Source: a virus (Duplodnaviria > Caudoviricetes). From it: a stretch of 64,000 nucleotides of DNA. The notes below the pieces were generated by a model. That model made no database searches and was not told where the DNA came from. It saw only the letters and a program-made list of their open reading frames with translations. A program made the position numbers and the translations under genes. The stretch lies in IMG/VR virus record IMGVR_UViG_3300044693_000247, positions 21,071 through 85,070 of that record; one strand, 5' to 3'. This document shows, piece by piece, positions 20,744-58,696 of this stretch (position 1 is its first letter; each line of letters starts with the position of its first letter).

Positions 20744-21105
20744 GGCGTCCCCATCGTCCACGCCGGACAGTCATCGCACGTCGGACCAGCGCAATACATC
20801 CCGCCCGGCAGCACGCAATCGGTGACCGGCTCCGCCTGCGTGTTCCCCGGCGAGAACTGCAGGCACTTGTACAAGCACGCCGGGTGACCAGGGCACGGAG
20901 ACGAAGGCGCCTCGACCGTCCAGCCGTCGTTCACGGAGCAGGCGGGGCCGGCGTCGAAGCCATCGGAGGCCGTGGTCGCGTCGAGGGCTCCGCCATCGGA
21001 TCCGCCGTCACCCCCGATCACGATCACGGGGTTGTTGTTGAACGTCGGGCAGGCGGGGAAGACAGCGAGCGCGAACGCGAACGCGATCAGAAGAGTGGGC
21101 TTCAA
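20740..21105 (-). CDS. Cys-rich lipoprotein
   Basis: Lipobox-like VFPAC, GGDGGSDGG linker, Cys-rich C-terminus. Confidence 0.7.
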   Translation of the reverse strand: MKPTLLIAFAFALAVFPACPTFNNNPVIVIGGDGGSDGGALDATTASDGFDAGPACSVNDGWTVEAPSSPCPGHPACLYKCLQFSPGNTQAEPVTDCVLPGGMYCAGPTCDDCPAWTMGTP

Positions 21106-49216: not shown

Positions 49217-50170
49217 GTGTTCTTGGAGATCGACGAACACTTCCACATGCACCGCAAGAGCGTGGATCTTTGCGCGCGTCTCATGAACCCAGTGGCCTGG
49301 GCGTACGTCCAGAAGCTCTGGGCGTGGGCCTGCGGAAACGCCAAGGATGGCGACCTCACGGACTGCACGCCGGGCGCCATCGAGTTCATCGTCGGGTGGC
49401 ACCTGGCCGACGGCAAGTTCTACGACGCCTGCGTGGCGGTCGGGTTCATTGACGAGGACAGGGACGACGCCGGGAAGGTGACCGCTAGGAGAATCCACAA
49501 CTGGATGAAGCGAACGGGCGCGGCGATCGCACGCATGCAGGCGGCCGCCGAGGCGTCCAAGAAGCGGAAAAAGGACTGGAGGGAACGCAACAAGAGACAA
49601 AAGGGAACGCGTGACGGAACGCCAGGGGGACGCGACGAGGACGGAACAGAGCTGTTAACCGATGGGACAGACTCCGTTCCGGAACGTGAGAAGAACGCTG
49701 ATGGGACGCACCAAGACAAGTCTAGTCAAGGCAAGGCAAGTCAAGACAAGGCCAAGCAAGATCAGGGGGGGTTAGATCCCGCCCCGCTCGCGAAATCGTC
49801 GCACTGGTCCGCCCTCGAGTGGCTCCGGAAGTTTGGCATCGCGTGGGCTCGGCAGTACCAGACCGCCAGCTACGGCCGTGGAGACAGCGACGCGAAGGCG
49901 ATACGGGATCTCGACGACCTCCTGGCGACCCTGACCGAAGGCGAGCGCATCGAGGCGCAGACCAACGCCAGCCAGATAATCGGCCGGTACTTGGCGGACA
50001 AGGCGGCGGCGCAAGCGAAGCACCCGTTCAAGTGGTTCGCCGAGCGCTTCAATGGCTTGCGCATCCCGCCGGCTGCAGCGCGGCGGGATCCCGTGATCGC
50101 GACAGCGGTTGCCGCGTCTGGCGGCCGTCCCTACCTGCCGCCGAAGGAGGCCACCGGTGGCGCTCGCTGA
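49217..50170 (+). CDS. Phage replication initiator/replisome organiser
   Basis: N-terminal winged-helix-type region (KLWAW...DGDL...GFID...IHNW), basic RKK helix, low-complexity linker; upstream of primase-helicase. Confidence 0.7.
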   Translation: MFLEIDEHFHMHRKSVDLCARLMNPVAWAYVQKLWAWACGNAKDGDLTDCTPGAIEFIVGWHLADGKFYDACVAVGFIDEDRDDAGKVTARRIHNWMKRTGAAIARMQAAAEASKKRKKDWRERNKRQKGTRDGTPGGRDEDGTELLTDGTDSVPEREKNADGTHQDKSSQGKASQDKAKQDQGGLDPAPLAKSSHWSALEWLRKFGIAWARQYQTASYGRGDSDAKAIRDLDDLLATLTEGERIEAQTNASQIIGRYLADKAAAQAKHPFKWFAERFNGLRIPPAAARRDPVIATAVAASGGRPYLPPKEATGGAR

Positions 50171-51944
50171 GATCCTGCAACGACTGGCCGATCACCGGCT
50201 GAAACCGGCCGGCGACGGTCGCTGGATGGCGCTCTGCCCTGCACACGGAGATCGCACGCCGAGCCTGTCTGTGGCCCGGGGGACCGGCGGTAAAGCTCTC
50301 GTCCACTGCCACGCGGGATGTACCGCCGAGTCGGTCATGAGCGCGATCGGACTCGGGATCGGAGACCTGTTCGACGGCGACGACCGCAAGGAGGCCCGAG
50401 AGACGCTGCCGCCGGACAAGTGGCCTGTGACCGCCACGTACACGTACGAGGACGCCTCTGGCAAGCCGCTCTATCGCGTGCTCCGCAAGACCAGCCAGGA
50501 CAGCGGGAACAAGACCTTCCGCCAGGAGCGGTTCTCGGACGGCCGGTGGCTGCCCGGCATGGAGGGCGTGGAGCGCGTGCTTTACGGTATGCCACGCCTG
50601 GCGGATCCGGAACTCGCCGACGAGACGGTGTTCCTGGCGGAGGGCGAGCGCGACGCCGACAACCTGACCGCGATCGGAGTACTGGCGACCACGAACGTCG
50701 GCGGTGCCGGCAAGTGGCTTCCGCAGTACAGCGAGTCGCTGCGAAAGCGCAACGTCGTCATCCTTCCGGACAACGACGATCCCGGAGAGAAGCACGCCGC
50801 AGTCGTCGGCGACGCATTGAATGGGACCGCCGCCAGCGTCCGGGTGCTTCGCCTTCCGGGCCTGCCACCGAAGGGCGACGTCACCGACTGGATTGGGAAC
50901 GGAGGGACCGCCGAGCAGCTCCGCGCGATGGTTGAACGGTTGGCCAAGGGAGCGTCGTTCATGCCATCGCCGAAGCGGTTGGTCGGCGAGCGCGCCGACC
51001 GCATTCACGCCGGCCGACACCTGCTCTCGTTCGGAGTGAAGTTCCTCGACGATGCTCTCGGTGGAATCACGCGCCGCGACCTGATCCTGCTCGGTGCGAA
51101 GACCGGTGCCGGCAAGACGCAGCTCGCGCTCAACATCGCGATTGCCAACTGCCGCGCGAACCGCAAGGTCCACTACTTCGCGCTCGAGGCCGAGGAGCGC
51201 GAGATGGAGAGGCGGATGAAGTTTCAAATCCTCGCCGATGCCTACTATCGCGAGGCCATGGCGGCAGAGCGGCTGCGATTCATTGACTGGTACAACGGCA
51301 AGCTCGATGGCGTGCTGGCGTACTTCGAGGATCGCGCCGATCGAGAGGTCGCGGACCTGACGCGGAACCTGCACACGTTCTACCGCGTGGACAGCTTCAC
51401 AGGCTCCGACTTCTCGAAGCAGCTCGACGCGATCCGCGAGGACACCGATCTCGTGGTGCTTGACCACTTCCACTATGTCGACTCCGAGGACACGAACGAG
51501 AACCGGGCGGCGAAGAACCTTGTCAAGCAGATAAGGGACTGCGCGCTCCGCGCTGACCGGCCCGTGCTGGTGGTCGCCCACGTCCGCAAGTCAGATCCGC
51601 GCTATGCACCGCTCGTTCCGACCGAGGAGGCGTTCCACGGCTCCAGCGACCTCGTGAAGATCGTGACCAAGGCGATCATGCTGGCGCCCGACTACGAGAC
51701 GCAGACCGGCGACCCGTCGCTGTGGGCGACCTACATGCAGATCGTGAAGTGTCGCCAGGACAGCACGCTGACGAGATTCGTTGCGCGCCTGACCTACGAC
51801 ACGCGAATGGATGCCTACCGTCCAGAGTATTCGCTCGGGCGTCTGACCGACGGCGGACGGATGTGGGAACCGATCCCGCCGTACTCGATGCCGAGATGGG
51901 CGGAGCAGCATCGGGTGCAACCGGACTTTCCGATCATCGACTGA
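50157..51944 (+). CDS. Primase-helicase (Zn-binding domain + TOPRIM + DnaB-like SF4 helicase)
   Basis: CPAHGDRTPSL...HCHAGC, VFLAEGERDA, ILPDNDDPG, GAKTGAGKT Walker A, VVLDH Walker B. Confidence 0.92.
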   Translation: MALAEILQRLADHRLKPAGDGRWMALCPAHGDRTPSLSVARGTGGKALVHCHAGCTAESVMSAIGLGIGDLFDGDDRKEARETLPPDKWPVTATYTYEDASGKPLYRVLRKTSQDSGNKTFRQERFSDGRWLPGMEGVERVLYGMPRLADPELADETVFLAEGERDADNLTAIGVLATTNVGGAGKWLPQYSESLRKRNVVILPDNDDPGEKHAAVVGDALNGTAASVRVLRLPGLPPKGDVTDWIGNGGTAEQLRAMVERLAKGASFMPSPKRLVGERADRIHAGRHLLSFGVKFLDDALGGITRRDLILLGAKTGAGKTQLALNIAIANCRANRKVHYFALEAEEREMERRMKFQILADAYYREAMAAERLRFIDWYNGKLDGVLAYFEDRADREVADLTRNLHTFYRVDSFTGSDFSKQLDAIREDTDLVVLDHFHYVDSEDTNENRAAKNLVKQIRDCALRADRPVLVVAHVRKSDPRYAPLVPTEEAFHGSSDLVKIVTKAIMLAPDYETQTGDPSLWATYMQIVKCRQDSTLTRFVARLTYDTRMDAYRPEYSLGRLTDGGRMWEPIPPYSMPRWAEQHRVQPDFPIID

Positions 51945-54494: not shown

Positions 54495-55003
54495 AAGCGC
54501 TCGCCCGTCTCGTTCCCGCCATCGTCGCTGTGCCGTTGCTGCTGGTCTGCATGGGGGCCAACTCTTGCGACGTCGGCCCATCTGCTGACGACGTTCAGCG
54601 GGCGCAGCAGGAGCGGATCCTGCGCGAAGGCACGTCCGAGATCGGCATGCCGGCGATCAAGAACTTCCGCGAGCGGCGCTTGCTCAAGCAGATCCTCGAA
54701 CTGCGCGACCAGGCCGATCTCGTGACGTACACGTACACCTACTCGGAGATGACCGGGAAGCTGGTCTTCTTCTGCACGAGCATCGGCTACGGCATCCCGT
54801 ATGCGACGCAGTTCACGAATCCGCAGAAGACGGACATGGGCCGCGAGGGAATCACGACGCTGGCGCAGGCGGATCCCAACGGGCTGTTCTCGCCGGCATC
54901 GGCTGAAGGGACCTGGGTCATGTGCAAGGACCCGAAGGCCGATAGCGTGCGCCCGGTGTATGTGGAGCCTCGCGTGGTTGTCTCGCCGTTCGCGCTGCAA
55001 TGA
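54491..55003 (+). CDS. Conserved-type phage lipoprotein
   Basis: Lipobox-like ANSC; GMPAIKNFRERR, SIGYGIPYATQFTNP, QADPNGLFSP.SAEGTWVMC. Confidence 0.8.
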   Translation: MKALARLVPAIVAVPLLLVCMGANSCDVGPSADDVQRAQQERILREGTSEIGMPAIKNFRERRLLKQILELRDQADLVTYTYTYSEMTGKLVFFCTSIGYGIPYATQFTNPQKTDMGREGITTLAQADPNGLFSPASAEGTWVMCKDPKADSVRPVYVEPRVVVSPFALQ

Positions 55004-55127
55004 CACGCCTTCAGGCACAATCGACCGTCTCCGGCCCCCACCGCGGTCGTCGCCCCCTCTCCCTCCTCTTTTGCGGAGCCGTGGCGCTGGCGATCTTGGC
55101 GGTGGGACGCGTGATGTTGGAGGGGAT

Positions 55128-55658
55128 GTGACAGCGAAGCCGCGCAAGATGCCGCGCCAGAAGCCTCACCGATCGGAGCAGGCCGTTGGCACGCCGCCGG
55201 AGTTCATGAACGCTGTCGCGAGCAGGTTCGGTCAACCAAAGTGGGATCTTGCGGCCAACGCTGAGAACAGCGTGTGCGGACCTCTGTTCTACGGACCGGG
55301 AGGCAGGTACGAGAACGATTCGCTCTCATTTTCGTGGTCACGCGACCATCGTGGACAACTACTTTGGCTCAACCCGCCATATTCCAACATCTCGCCCTGG
55401 GCGCAGAAGTGCGCCGAGGAGAGCGCGAAGGGGGCGCGCATCCTCTTCCTGGTTCCGGCGTCCGTCGGCTCGGCCTGGTTCAACGATTGGGTGCGGCCGT
55501 TCGCGTATGTGCTTGAGCTATCGCCGCGAATCCGCTTCCGAGGCCACGAGACGGGCTATCCCAAAGACCTCATTCTCGCCGTCTACACCCGCGAGCGCTT
55601 CATCGGCCGTGCTCCATGGCGCTGGGACACCGACTTCGACGGGATGACGACGCGATGA
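55128..55658 (+). CDS. Phage DNA N6-adenine methyltransferase (Dam_phage type)
   Basis: TPPEF, WDLAA, WLNPPYS.I.PW..K, FLVPAS.GSAWF, RIRF. Confidence 0.88.
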   Translation: MTAKPRKMPRQKPHRSEQAVGTPPEFMNAVASRFGQPKWDLAANAENSVCGPLFYGPGGRYENDSLSFSWSRDHRGQLLWLNPPYSNISPWAQKCAEESAKGARILFLVPASVGSAWFNDWVRPFAYVLELSPRIRFRGHETGYPKDLILAVYTRERFIGRAPWRWDTDFDGMTTR

Positions 55659-55882
55659 AGACGATCCTCTGGCTCATTTTCGCGCCATCTGCCGCGCCCC
55701 ACGATCCCGGCCGATGGGGCGTCCGTCCCTACGACATCACCAAGGGCAACGGCTCCGGGGACTGGTGCGGGCCCAGGATCGAGGCGTCCTCTCTGGAGTC
55801 GGCGCGGAGGCTCCTGCCGGTGAGGGCGGAAAGAGTGGTGGTTGGGGACGAGATTCCGCGGGTTGCGGAGGCGTGGTGCTAG
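55655..55882 (+). CDS. Hypothetical protein
   Basis: ATGA overlap. Confidence 0.45.
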   Translation: MKTILWLIFAPSAAPHDPGRWGVRPYDITKGNGSGDWCGPRIEASSLESARRLLPVRAERVVVGDEIPRVAEAWC

Positions 55883-57075
55883 AGGCGCTGAAGATCGGAT
55901 CGCTGTTCTCAGGCGCGGGCGGCATCGAGCTCGGGCTGGAGATGGTGTTCCCACGCGCCCGGGTCGCGTGGCAAGCCGAGAGCGACCCGCACGCGCTGGC
56001 GGTGCTCGCCCACCATTGGCCCGAAGCACGCCGCTACACGGACGTGAGGGAGATCGACGAGCATGCAGAGCGACCCGACATCATCTGCGGCGGGTTCCCC
56101 TGCCAGGACATCAGCCTCGCCGGAAAGGGAGCCGGCATCGACGGTGAGCGATCCGGCCTCTGGTCCGAGTTCGCCCGCGTGCTTAGCGTTCTACGACCCG
56201 ATCTCGCGTTCGTGGAAAACGTCGCAGCTCTCGTTGGTCGAGGGCTCGACCGCGTACTCAGAGATCTTGCCGAAATCGGGTTCGATGCGGAGTGGGAGAC
56301 TCTTCGCGCGTCCGACATCGGAGCGCCCCACCGCAGAGAGCGAGTCTTCGTGCTGGCCTACGCCGACCGCGACCGAGTACGGCAGCTCGCAGAATGGGGA
56401 TCATGGCGTGGGCCGCGAGAACGAACGGCCGAGCGCGAACACGCCGAGTCTCTGGACGATGGCGCGGCACTGGCCGACGCCGATGGCGAGGGACGGAGAT
56501 CCGGCGCGGGGGACGCCATCGGCAGCGACGGCGGCGGCGAGGTTCCGATCGGGCCGGCGCAATCTCGACGACGCCGTGGCACTGTGGCCGAAGCCGACGG
56601 CCGCGGACAGTGGCAGAGCGAGCGGGACCTACGCGCGAGGGAACGCCACGCTGACGGGAGCGGCGAGGTCAAGTTGGCCGACGCCGACGGCTCGGGACGC
56701 GAAGGGAACGGGTTCGGAGAACCACCCGGAGCATGGAGGTCCGACGCTGCCGAATGTGGTGCGCGCTCTCTGGCCGACGCCAACGGCAACGGATGCGAAG
56801 GCGAGCGGCTCAGCGGCGTACTCGGACGAGAGCGGGCGGCACACGGGGGCGACGCTAACGGACGCCACGGTTCGCTCTGGCGCCACCGATTCCCGCCGGG
56901 CCCGGCCTGGATCGCCGGATGGGATGGTCCTCAGCCCGCGATTCGTCGAGGCGATGATGGGGTTCCCGGACGGTCACACCGCCTGCGCCTACTTGGGAAC
57001 GCCTGCGTCCCGCAGCAAGCGGCGGAAGCGTTCGTCAGGTTGATAGCGCGCGCCGATGGTCGGGAGGCCGCATGA
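55876..57075 (+). CDS. dcm: DNA cytosine-5 methyltransferase, alpha chain
   Basis: Motif I SLFSGAGG, IV GGFPCQ, VI ENV, VIII HRRERVF, X LGNACVP; motif IX not evident in this frame. Confidence 0.95.
   Translation: MLEALKIGSLFSGAGGIELGLEMVFPRARVAWQAESDPHALAVLAHHWPEARRYTDVREIDEHAERPDIICGGFPCQDISLAGKGAGIDGERSGLWSEFARVLSVLRPDLAFVENVAALVGRGLDRVLRDLAEIGFDAEWETLRASDIGAPHRRERVFVLAYADRDRVRQLAEWGSWRGPRERTAEREHAESLDDGAALADADGEGRRSGAGDAIGSDGGGEVPIGPAQSRRRRGTVAEADGRGQWQSERDLRARERHADGSGEVKLADADGSGREGNGFGEPPGAWRSDAAECGARSLADANGNGCEGERLSGVLGRERAAHGGDANGRHGSLWRHRFPPGPAWIAGWDGPQPAIRRGDDGVPGRSHRLRLLGNACVPQQAAEAFVRLIARADGREAA
56063..57043 (+). CDS. Nested +1-frame ORF, probable beta chain of the C5-MTase
   Basis: 326-codon open frame entirely inside dcm; five WP(T/K)PxAx(D/E) repeats; motif IX-like LSPRFVEAMMGFP. 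Confidence 0.7.
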   Translation: MQSDPTSSAAGSPARTSASPEREPASTVSDPASGPSSPACLAFYDPISRSWKTSQLSLVEGSTAYSEILPKSGSMRSGRLFARPTSERPTAESESSCWPTPTATEYGSSQNGDHGVGRENERPSANTPSLWTMARHWPTPMARDGDPARGTPSAATAAARFRSGRRNLDDAVALWPKPTAADSGRASGTYARGNATLTGAARSSWPTPTARDAKGTGSENHPEHGGPTLPNVVRALWPTPTATDAKASGSAAYSDESGRHTGATLTDATVRSGATDSRRARPGSPDGMVLSPRFVEAMMGFPDGHTACAYLGTPASRSKRRKRSSG

Positions 57076-57767
57076 AGCACCACGATCGCGACGTCCCCCA
57101 CCCGCGCACCAAGCGCGTGAAGACGGTCGAGCACTTCGTCGAGACGGAGCGTGCGCGGAGGCGAGTGCGCAAGGCCGATGGATCGTCTTGGCCGGCGCAC
57201 GCCGTCGGTCCTGGTGTAGCGCCGCGGCGTCCGCCGATTTGCATGCTGTTCGATGACCTCGCAGATCCCAGCGACCAGCCCGAAGGCGTGTTCGGGATGT
57301 ACCCCGCTGCCCTGATCCCGAAGCTCCTGCCCTACCTCCGCTGCGCGCGCCGCGAGGTCCTGCACGTCTGCTCGGGCGGGCTTCCACGGGGCGAGGGTAT
57401 TCGCGTGGATCTCAGGCCGGCAGCCCGGCCAGATTACGTCGCCGACGGCTGCGCGCTCCCGTTTCGCGACGGTACCTTCGCGGCGGCTCTGATCGACCCG
57501 CCGTACTCCGAGCACTACGCGCGCGAGCTCTACGGCACGGCTTACCCGCTGCCGTCTCACCTGCTTCGGGAGGCGGCGCGGGTCGTGCGACCGGGCGGAC
57601 GGATCGGATTCGTGCACTACCTCGTGCCCAACCCGCCGCCTGGCTGCCACCACGTCAAGACCTTCGGGCTGTCGATGGGGTTCGGATACCCGATGCGGGC
57701 GGTGACGTTGTACGAGCGCGATCAGGATGTGCTTCCCGGCGTCGGCGCGAACGAGGTCCCGACATGA
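57072..57767 (+). CDS. SAM-dependent DNA amino-methyltransferase-like protein
   Basis: LHVCSG, VDLRP..RPDYVAD...LPF.DGTF, DPPY. Confidence 0.8.
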   Translation: MKHHDRDVPHPRTKRVKTVEHFVETERARRRVRKADGSSWPAHAVGPGVAPRRPPICMLFDDLADPSDQPEGVFGMYPAALIPKLLPYLRCARREVLHVCSGGLPRGEGIRVDLRPAARPDYVADGCALPFRDGTFAAALIDPPYSEHYARELYGTAYPLPSHLLREAARVVRPGGRIGFVHYLVPNPPPGCHHVKTFGLSMGFGYPMRAVTLYERDQDVLPGVGANEVPT

Positions 57768-58696
57768 AGGCGCCGTTCCCATATTTCGGCGGCAAGCGAA
57801 CCGTCGCGCCCGAGGTCTGGCGTCGTTTCGGATCGCCGAAGCAGTACATCGAGCCGTTCTGTGGATCGGCCGCGATCCTTCTCGCCGCCCCGGCCCCCGC
57901 GTCGCTCGAAGTGATCGGCGACATGAACGGATTCATCGCGAACTTCTGGCGAGCGGTTGTCCATCAGCACGCCGAGGTTGCGCGATGGGCCGACTACCCC
58001 GTCTCTCACGTCGACCTGCACGCGCGGCACGCCTGGCTGATGGAACGGCGTCAAGCTTTGGCCGCCGGCCTCGAAGACCCTGAATGGACCGGCAACGCTC
58101 AGGCAGCCGGATGGTGGTTGTGGGGTCAGTGCTGCTGGATCGGGTCGGGGTGGTGCGAGTGGGATCGCGATCGGCAACGCGGGCATGGGGATTCAGGCAG
58201 CGGGCAAGGTCAGGTCCCGCACGTCGGCAACGCGGGCATGGGGATTCAGGCAGCGGGCAAGGTCCCGCACGTCAGCGACGGGGGCAGGGGCGCTCCGTGG
58301 ACGTCATCAGGAGCCGTCGCAATGACCTGGCTCGCGAAGCTATCCGCCCGCATGGAGCGCGTGCGCGTCGTTCACGGCGACTGGAAGCGATGCCTTAACC
58401 ACCACTACGGCGGCAACAACACCGCCGTCTTTCTCGATCCTCCGTACGAGGGGTACGAGGGTCTGTACGGCGCTCGTCCGATCGCCGCCGATGTAGCCGA
58501 TTGGTGCCGCGAGAATTCGGGCCTGAAGATCGCGCTCTGCGGGCACCGCGGGGACTACCAGCTCGAAGGGTGGTCGGTGTTCGAGTGGGAGCGCGAGCGG
58601 AACACGTACGGTGGTGACAGCACAAAAGGGGACGAGGCGATCTGGTTTTCGCCATCGTGCGCTCAAGGCGGTGGGCAGCTGGAGTTGTGCGCATGA
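57764..58696 (+). CDS. D12-class DNA adenine methylase
   Basis: PFPYFGGKR, YIEPFCGSAA, GDW, VFLDPPY. Confidence 0.92.
   Translation: MKAPFPYFGGKRTVAPEVWRRFGSPKQYIEPFCGSAAILLAAPAPASLEVIGDMNGFIANFWRAVVHQHAEVARWADYPVSHVDLHARHAWLMERRQALAAGLEDPEWTGNAQAAGWWLWGQCCWIGSGWCEWDRDRQRGHGDSGSGQGQVPHVGNAGMGIQAAGKVPHVSDGGRGAPWTSSGAVAMTWLAKLSARMERVRVVHGDWKRCLNHHYGGNNTAVFLDPPYEGYEGLYGARPIAADVADWCRENSGLKIALCGHRGDYQLEGWSVFEWERERNTYGGDSTKGDEAIWFSPSCAQGGGQLELCA
58171..58271 (+). repeat. Tandem 53/48-bp repeat inside the D12 methylase gene
   Basis: TCGGCAACGCGGGCATGGGGATTCAGGCAGCGGGCAAGGTC..CCGCACG at 58171 and 58224; first copy has an extra AGGTC. Confidence 0.9.

Follow-up and report, generated by a model that had tools for sequence, protein, structure and literature searches.

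DNA (cytosine-5) (C5) methyltransferases comprise a large domain, which holds motifs I-VIII together with X, as well as a small one, which consists of the variable region and motif IX (PMC3404938). The closest known counterpart of the locus reported here is M.EcoHK31I (E. coli HK31, YGGCCR; Lee, Kam and Shaw 1995), which the published accounts present as a heterodimeric C5 methyltransferase with motifs I-VIII and X in its α polypeptide and motif IX in its β polypeptide (PMC2836561, PMC3404938). Among enzymes whose β lies in a different frame of the α gene, it is the one that has been proven by experiment, and both chains are required; the N-terminus of β matters for association, and internal Met codons of β can be used as starts (PMC2836561). 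A gene with this organization was noticed in a stretch of 64,000 nucleotides from a virus (Duplodnaviria; Caudoviricetes), hereafter the window, which forms part (positions 21,071 to 85,070) of the 85-kb IMG/VR virus record IMGVR_UViG_3300044693_000247. Comparison of this gene with its relatives indicates that the locus probably encodes a heterodimeric C5 methyltransferase from two overlapping genes on the same strand, termed α and β below.

The α polypeptide (399 residues) is read in frame A. The phase of GC content at third codon positions (GC3) changes to this frame at ~55870, and the preceding 162 codons of the long frame-A open reading frame (ORF) belong to another gene; the start of α is therefore placed at GTG 55876, behind a GGAGG that is likely to be its Shine-Dalgarno (SD) sequence. 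Frame A is matched by Pfam PF00145 over residues 6-167 only (E-value of 6e-39) and by TIGR00675 (dcm) with 116.8 bits, above the cut-off of 100.65. Motifs I, IV, VI and VIII, expected of a DNA (cytosine-5) methyltransferase, all lie within the frame-A chain. The preliminary description had assigned these four motifs and motif X to frame A and had seen no evident motif IX there, and each was recovered in place (Table 1). Motif IX is absent from frame A (55876-57075), and nothing protein-like was found between motifs VIII and X. A single-chain enzyme would display IX and X alongside I-VIII; here, X is in frame A and IX is found solely in the +1 frame; all ten motifs are present when the locus is taken as a whole.

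A structural model of α was built by AlphaFold2 (AF2) with 65 α sequences. By the predicted local distance difference test (pLDDT), residues 1-175 score 90-98 and residues 366-399 score 76-96, with values below 50 throughout residues 180-365. The model resembles M.HhaI (2i9k_A; Z of 22.6 and root mean square deviation (rmsd) of 3.4 over 202 aligned residues, model residues 3 to 399 on chain residues 10 to 327) and M.HaeIII (Z of 19.3). Thus, α is predicted to fold as a large domain whose Rossmann core is packed against by the C-terminal helix of motif X, and the intervening linker of ~186 residues is predicted to be disordered.

The β ORF (326 residues) is located entirely within the α ORF, in the +1 frame (frame B), which gives an overlap of 981 nt. 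The +1 frame is open from 56048, directly after a TGA, and the likely SD of β, AGGGAG, lies 9 nt before its ATG at 56063; the long +1 frame with an upstream ribosome-binding sequence that had been reported from the window's letters is indeed there. The chain comprises an N-terminal module, a putative target-recognition region with five repeats and motif IX (LSPRFVEAMMGFPDGHT), the last of which had been called motif-IX-like and proved to be canonical. The repeat units are 30-39 residues long, each with an 8-residue core, and the likeness among them is confined to these ~25-nt cores, so that these are repeats at the protein level and not recent DNA duplications. Residues 289-323 of β match positions 441-472 of phrog_116, inside the span 206-486 that is matched by α residues 3-386. 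The homologues of β number more than 944, with lengths of 200-530 residues and no Pfam domain in any of them; β also matches phrog_1008, annotated as DNA methyltransferase (E-value of 7e-39), and its start and stop positions are common to the family in the alignment. The frame boundaries of the window gene coincide exactly with the boundaries between the large and small domains of C5 methyltransferases. This explains why motif X must return to the α frame, with α being read through the β gene.

Whether both frames are kept open was assessed in 94 loci by shuffling the synonymous codons of the evidently coding frame and counting how often the other frames remained open. All 94 loci keep frame A open over the repeat and motif IX region, against 6.9 expected, and none of the 94 has an open third frame there (0.6 expected). 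Over motifs I-VIII, frame B is open in 71/94 loci (10.7 expected) and the third frame in 3/94 (2.1 expected). Since the loci were retrieved by the β protein, retrieval introduces no bias towards openness of frame A, or of frame B upstream of motif IV. In the window's own sequence, frame A stays open over the 603-nt repeat and IX region in 2.5% of shuffles that keep the β protein and the codon usage, and the third frame contains 3 stops in the same region; openness of frame B has a chance probability of 11.5%, with one stop, the TGA at 56045, before the β start. At 67-69% GC the window's open frames taken alone are only suggestive, and it is the family data that are decisive.

Codon usage within the family reveals which parts of the overlap are selected. 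Across motifs I-VIII the most variable codon position is the third position of frame A (A3; 0.57 versus 0.36 and 0.28), while across the repeat region it is the third position of frame B (B3; 0.56 versus 0.42). A site-wise test revealed constraint on β residues ~41-97 and on the α segment preceding motif X, and it is only site by site that selection on both frames becomes visible. A first view, taken from a global test, had been that the spacers of both chains are unconstrained; the site-wise test upheld this for the α linker and for β upstream of motif IV only. By this codon evidence, two zones (~56183-56353 and 56920-56994) are under amino-acid selection in both frames simultaneously.

In the first zone, α motifs VI-VIII lie over β residues 41-97 (FYDP.S.SWKT ... 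LP.SGSMRSG), and the choice among synonymous α codons is almost fixed at the sites where it determines the β residue. The W of β SWKT comes from GTG as the codon for V of FVENV (68/69 loci), the D of β YDP from CGA for R of LRP (75/77), a β P from GCC for A of LA.LG (84/84), a β G from GGG for G of LGY (85/90, with a background of 18%), a β R from GCG for A of DA.W (71/82) and a β Met from GAT for D of GYD (71%, compared with 26% elsewhere). The glycines of motif I are equally invariant and use all four codons. As retrieval by β might enrich β-like codons, the test of this zone was rerun on 65 loci retrieved with α alone, with agreeing results (GGG 45/45, GCC 41/44, GTG 18/19, CGA 26/29). The second zone shows the converse, where codons of β motif IX preserve the α segment W..EP.VGRVA.GVP.RVDRL, directly 5' of motif X: β GGT (62/64 loci) gives α W, β GTC (83/94) and β ACC/ACA (89/90) give α R, β CTG/TTG gives α E and β AAC gives α P. 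The window contains all of the β-preserving codons (GTG, GGG, GCC, CGA, GCG and GAT), and its α Trp-349 (56920-56922) is preserved via the rare codon GAT. A single ribosome pass could not yield both readings of the doubly selected zones, which argues that two polypeptides are made.

The repeat region behaves differently from these zones. The preliminary description had noted that the five WP(T/K)PxA repeats of β correspond to (L/V)AxA(D/N) in α and had interpreted them as a dual-coded array. The correspondence stands, each core being read as (L/V)AxA(D/N)G in α. A functional role of the α reading does not, because the site-wise test detects no codon bias for the α linker in the repeat region, where no selection at the codon level is seen beyond stop avoidance, and the linker is predicted to be disordered; the (L/V)AxA(D/N) repeats of α are thus a passive by-product of β WPTPxA. 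By the codon patterns, genuine dual coding is found at either end of the overlap and not in the repeat array.

The β alignment was used to retrieve 160 loci, both from viral contigs and from genomes that represent many phyla, and 141 of these were classified by the frames of motifs IV, IX and X and of the PTP repeats. The layout of the window (IV in A, repeats and IX in A+1, X in A) is displayed by 115 loci with 47-74% GC, and frame A extends to motif X in 115/115 of them. In three loci (L001, L105 and L163) the repeats, IX and X are all in A+1. This split layout is exemplified by Gordonia phage Upyo, where genes 54/53 each carry the annotation 'DNA methylase'. In 21 actinomycete loci A+1 holds nothing but the repeats, and a single locus (Micromonospora L046) has everything in one frame. 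One further locus fell outside these four layouts solely through a stray match of the motif X search pattern. A frame-B ORF that opens later than motif IV was almost never seen. Acinetobacter phage ABMM1, with a gene region of 50% GC, has co-extensive ORFs of 304 and 298 codons, of which only the first is annotated. The number of repeats varies from 1 to 6 among the relatives, and the window, with five, is near the top of this range.

The loci with repeats only in the +1 frame (L021, L023, L026, L028, L045 and 16 other actinomycete loci) present all catalytic motifs, IX and X in frame A and LPTP repeats in +1. Judged by any of the motifs, these genes look like complete methyltransferases, so that their second ORF is invisible to annotation. 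A first classification by three motifs had listed 22 loci as 'single frame'; reading them revealed 21 with repeats in +1 and one true case, L046. At L046:1948-3687 (Micromonospora sp.), a single chain carries motifs I-VIII, six LLPTPxAxD repeats, IX and X in frame, an order which identifies repeats plus IX as what normally occupies the VIII-X interval, i.e. the variable or recognition region. In a quick tree, where the order of layout changes is indicative only, L046 is nested in the clade with repeats in +1, so that it may be a secondary fusion. WPISGMTRSG and one LLPTPRASD can still be read in the +1 frame of L046.

The family signatures of β are α motifs in another frame. The N-terminal SPARTSA is FPCQDIS read one base later, and the variants SPAKTS, SHAKTS, SRARTS and SPVRTS reflect synonymous codon variants of FPCQD; similarly, SWKT corresponds to FVEN(V), SGMMRNG to LGYDAEW and the C-terminal TPSSR to NAVVPQ of motif X. 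It follows that each aligned database β protein overlaps a methyltransferase gene in the same way. The two-frame layout is the rule in a very large phage and prophage family and not a peculiarity of the window gene. At the DNA level, copies of the family were detectable in 4/5,426 complete E. coli genomes, all of them in prophages. Identical catalytic-part sequences were found in L041 and L042, which are filed under a Microbacterium and a Luteolibacter metagenome-assembled genome (MAG) from the same study, and probably represent the same phage or a binning artefact.

Two arrangements of the β start were observed. In ~60/94 loci (e.g. L007, L013, L041, L044; L003:1296-1302) the starts of α and β are 4 nt apart in a double start, NTGAATG, in which the α start codon, one A and the β ATG follow a single shared SD and the inner TGA shuts the upstream +1 frame. 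In a subgroup that includes the window, the β start is internal, 32-74 nt upstream of motif IV, and the α codons D-V-R-E (gtGAgggag) contain the stop of the upstream +1 frame together with the SD that serves the ATG. The arrangement gtGAgg(g)ag plus start also occurs in relatives L113, L005, L151 and L090, of which L113 (catalytic part 70% identical) and L005, a Myxococcota MAG locus, are the window's nearest relatives. Within β, an internal ATG is conserved family-wide at residue 75 (56285-56287), ~22 codons 5' of the first repeat, as a consequence of the rare GAT codon of α G(Y/F)D. This Met codon may be a second β start, as reported for the internal Met codons of M.EcoHK31I β, or may encode a functional Met.

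Together these features point to the following organization. Translation of α from GTG 55876 would produce the catalytic large domain with motifs I-VIII, a spacer of ~186 residues that needs only to be read through, the conserved segment and the motif X helices, which would fold back onto the Rossmann core. Translation of β would start at ATG 56063 from its own ribosome-binding site inside α codons, just 5' of motif IV, and yield the small domain: a conserved N-terminal module of ~55 residues that is possibly a docking element for α, five WPTPxAxD-type repeats as the putative target-recognition region, and motif IX. The two chains would then assemble as in M.EcoHK31I into an enzyme that methylates phage DNA. 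What the analysis shows is the anatomy, the conservation of both open frames, the selection on both and the predicted α fold; translation of β, assembly, activity and the roles in sequence recognition and against restriction are inferred. The parallel with M.EcoHK31I had been drawn from the outset, and it is strengthened here by both frames being open in relatives of much lower GC, by selection on both and by the division of the motifs at the domain boundary.

Several observations weigh against a two-subunit enzyme. The AF2 model of β alone is weak (pLDDT of 62), and no PDB relative of β was found by Foldseek against the PDB, by VIA-align against 48,161 chains or by a profile search of PDB sequences; the identity of the small domain therefore rests on motif IX, its position and the single-chain relative. 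The better-modelled parts of β are the hairpins 42-53 and 73-82 (pLDDT ~80), which belong to the doubly selected module, helices 130-205 and motif IX. Global off-frame amino-acid identity, compared with synonymous shuffles, presented only a small excess over the control frame. The codon-bias p-values, such as 1e-103 for the GGT codons behind the α W, take related sequences as independent, and the conservation of synonymous bases could in principle reflect a function at the level of RNA or DNA instead. In the window, a stop is present in frame B upstream of motif IV, and open frames are less telling than in relatives because of the high GC. That β has neither a Pfam nor a PDB relative would also suit an overprinted β whose function is separate, for instance as a regulator or in anti-defence, with α acting alone and DNA recognition being provided by the linker or a host factor; the N-terminal module is unknown elsewhere, and every catalytic motif is in α. 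This explanation is nevertheless improbable, as β ends in the canonical motif IX that α lacks, within the phrog_116 span matched by α end to end, and the single chain of L046 has the same repeats and IX between VIII and X. The α linker, unconstrained and predicted to be disordered, is in addition an unlikely DNA recogniser.

The order of the motifs, A (I-VIII), B (repeats and IX) and A (X), would also be expected if one canonical chain were made by programmed recoding, through a +1 shift after VIII and a -1 shift after IX or through polymerase slippage, and the long alternative ORFs were incidental; relatives of the Upyo type, where A is followed by B with IX and X, would require just one +1 shift. 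Such recoding is very unlikely. It leaves unexplained why frame A is open through the repeats and frame B from its 5' end. The selected β residues over α VI-VIII are encoded upstream of the supposed shift site, and a ribosome that shifts there could not deliver them along with α VI-VIII. A second start codon is conserved, behind an SD that is either its own or shared. Furthermore, a canonical -1 slippery heptamer (X XXY YYZ) between IX and X is present in 0/115 loci, where homopolymers reach 4 nt at most, the +1 junction not having been formally scanned. A decayed gene or an assembly error, with two compensating indels and frames open through 67-69% GC, might be entertained for the window considered by itself, in which openness is no more than mildly improbable (2.5% for frame A in the repeat region and 11.5% for frame B), and a genuinely broken copy is known from the E. 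coli PCP07014 prophage (L165:800-1580). That copy looks different, both of its overlapping ORFs being interrupted at the same point (~1165-1178), and is listed in RefSeq as a pseudogene with an 'internal stop'. Across 115 diverged loci, with GC contents as low as 47%, the same two junctions recur and both frames are unbroken, and the window retains the β-preserving codons of the family, the rare GAT for α Trp-349 and a conserved SD and ATG for β; decay or misassembly is thus extremely unlikely.

Should the two-subunit enzyme be real, β could be an exchangeable specificity subunit, in which the number and sequence of the WPTP modules set the target. The doubly selected zones would encode the α-β interface, and the overlap would lock the catalytic core to its own recognition subunit while leaving the repeat array free to vary; the family would have moved repeatedly between the four layouts. 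This extension is tentative and, on present indications, rather doubtful. If the interface does reside in the doubly selected zones, partner-matching residues would be encoded by the same nucleotides and must co-evolve.

With 981 nt here, and the whole gene in relatives, the overlap in a two-subunit enzyme of this kind would rank among the longest that are conserved between same-strand genes of DNA viruses. Very many genes of phages and prophages that carry the annotation 'DNA cytosine methyltransferase' would then represent half an enzyme, the other half being unannotated or listed as a hypothetical protein. A natural split methyltransferase with a modular recognition subunit would be of interest in predicting methylomes, in the biology of phage-host restriction and in engineering targeted methylation, and the two zones of double amino-acid selection would provide a rare, clean test case for two functional proteins sharing codons.

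Table 1. Coordinates of the two-frame methyltransferase gene and of adjoining genes in the window.
Feature	Position	Strand	Remarks
GGAGG, likely SD of α	55867-55871	+	Read from sequence; 4 nt 5' of GTG 55876
α ORF, frame A, 399 aa: catalytic large domain, linker (predicted disordered), motif X	55876-57075	+	Pfam, TIGR00675, GC3 phase, AF2 model
Motif I, FSGAGG (S-adenosylmethionine binding), frame A	55906-55923	+	
TGA closing the upstream +1 frame (56045-56047), then AGGGAG (56048-56053), likely SD of β	56045-56053	+	In α codons D-V-R-E
β ORF, frame A+1, 326 aa: N-terminal module, five-repeat region, motif IX	56063-57043	+	Homologues, phrog_1008, shared start/stop positions
Motif IV, FPCQDIS (catalytic Cys), frame A	56095-56115	+	Frame-B reading SPARTSA
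First doubly selected zone: α VI-VIII over β residues 41-97	~56183-56353	+	FYDP.S.SWKT ... LP.SGSMRSG in β
Motif VI, ENV, frame A	56215-56223	+	
Motif VIII, RERVF, frame A	56335-56349	+	
Five WP(T/K)PxA repeat cores, frame B, putative target-recognition region	56354-56788	+	Cores at 56354, 56471, 56585, 56675, 56771; spacings 117, 114, 90, 96 nt
α linker, residues 180-365	56413-56970	+	Frame-A reading of the β repeat region, stop-free
Second doubly selected zone: β motif IX over α segment W..(E)P...R....G.P.R..RL	~56920-56994	+	Before motif X
Motif IX, LSPRFVEAMMGFPDGHT, canonical, frame B	56930-56980	+	
Motif X, GNACVP, frame A	56995-57012	+	Frame-B reading is the family C-terminal T-P-(A/S)-S-R
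Dam-like gene	End 55658		PF05869; true start probably near 55150
Small ORF, 88 codons	55616-55882		Strong GC3 signal; TAG 55880-55882 overlaps α start GTG 55876
Methyltransferase-like ORF, 231 aa	57072-57767		DPPY motif; ATG overlaps α stop
D12-class N6-adenine enzyme	57764-58696		PF02086

The window has a GC content of ~67%. The two-frame C5 gene is one of a row of four methyltransferase genes at 54801-58696 (Table 1). Upstream of this cluster, at 49217-51944, lie one gene for a replication initiation protein (phrog_9474) and another for a primase/helicase (phrog_239); the cluster thus sits in the early or replication region of the phage. The three companion methyltransferase genes are consistent with protection from host restriction. 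The overlap between the end of the 88-codon ORF and the start of α suggests translational coupling.

The window locus and M.EcoHK31I share a β ORF in an alternative frame within the α gene and the same division of motifs, with I-VIII and X in α and IX in β. Judged by the published description of M.EcoHK31I, its recognition domain is located in α and its β has IX only, while the repeats of the window are in β and the corresponding α stretch is a spacer; on the same basis, the window differs by its overlap of 981 nt and by the additional conserved N-terminal module of its β. A literature search for a description of a widespread two-frame family found none, which is not proof of absence. M.AquI (CYCGRG) is naturally divided after motif VIII, one of its chains being catalytic and the other serving recognition (PMC3404938), and Upyo genes 54/53 are organized alike. 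In M.AquI, α ends after VIII and β holds both IX and X, an arrangement found in relatives L001, L105 and L163. It contrasts with the window, where motif X is in the α frame and α runs to 57075. With M.HhaI and M.HaeIII the window enzyme shares the catalytic fold, the ten-motif logic and the division into large and small domains, but these are single chains in one frame whose recognition domain lacks WPTP repeats. The C5 methyltransferases of Bacillus phages SPR, phi3T and rho11s are multispecific, tandem units in their variable region giving several specificities. They resemble the window enzyme as phage C5 enzymes with a modular variable region, the analogy behind the idea of multispecificity, and differ in being single chains with larger recognition units; nothing ties the number of repeat units in the window to a number of targets.

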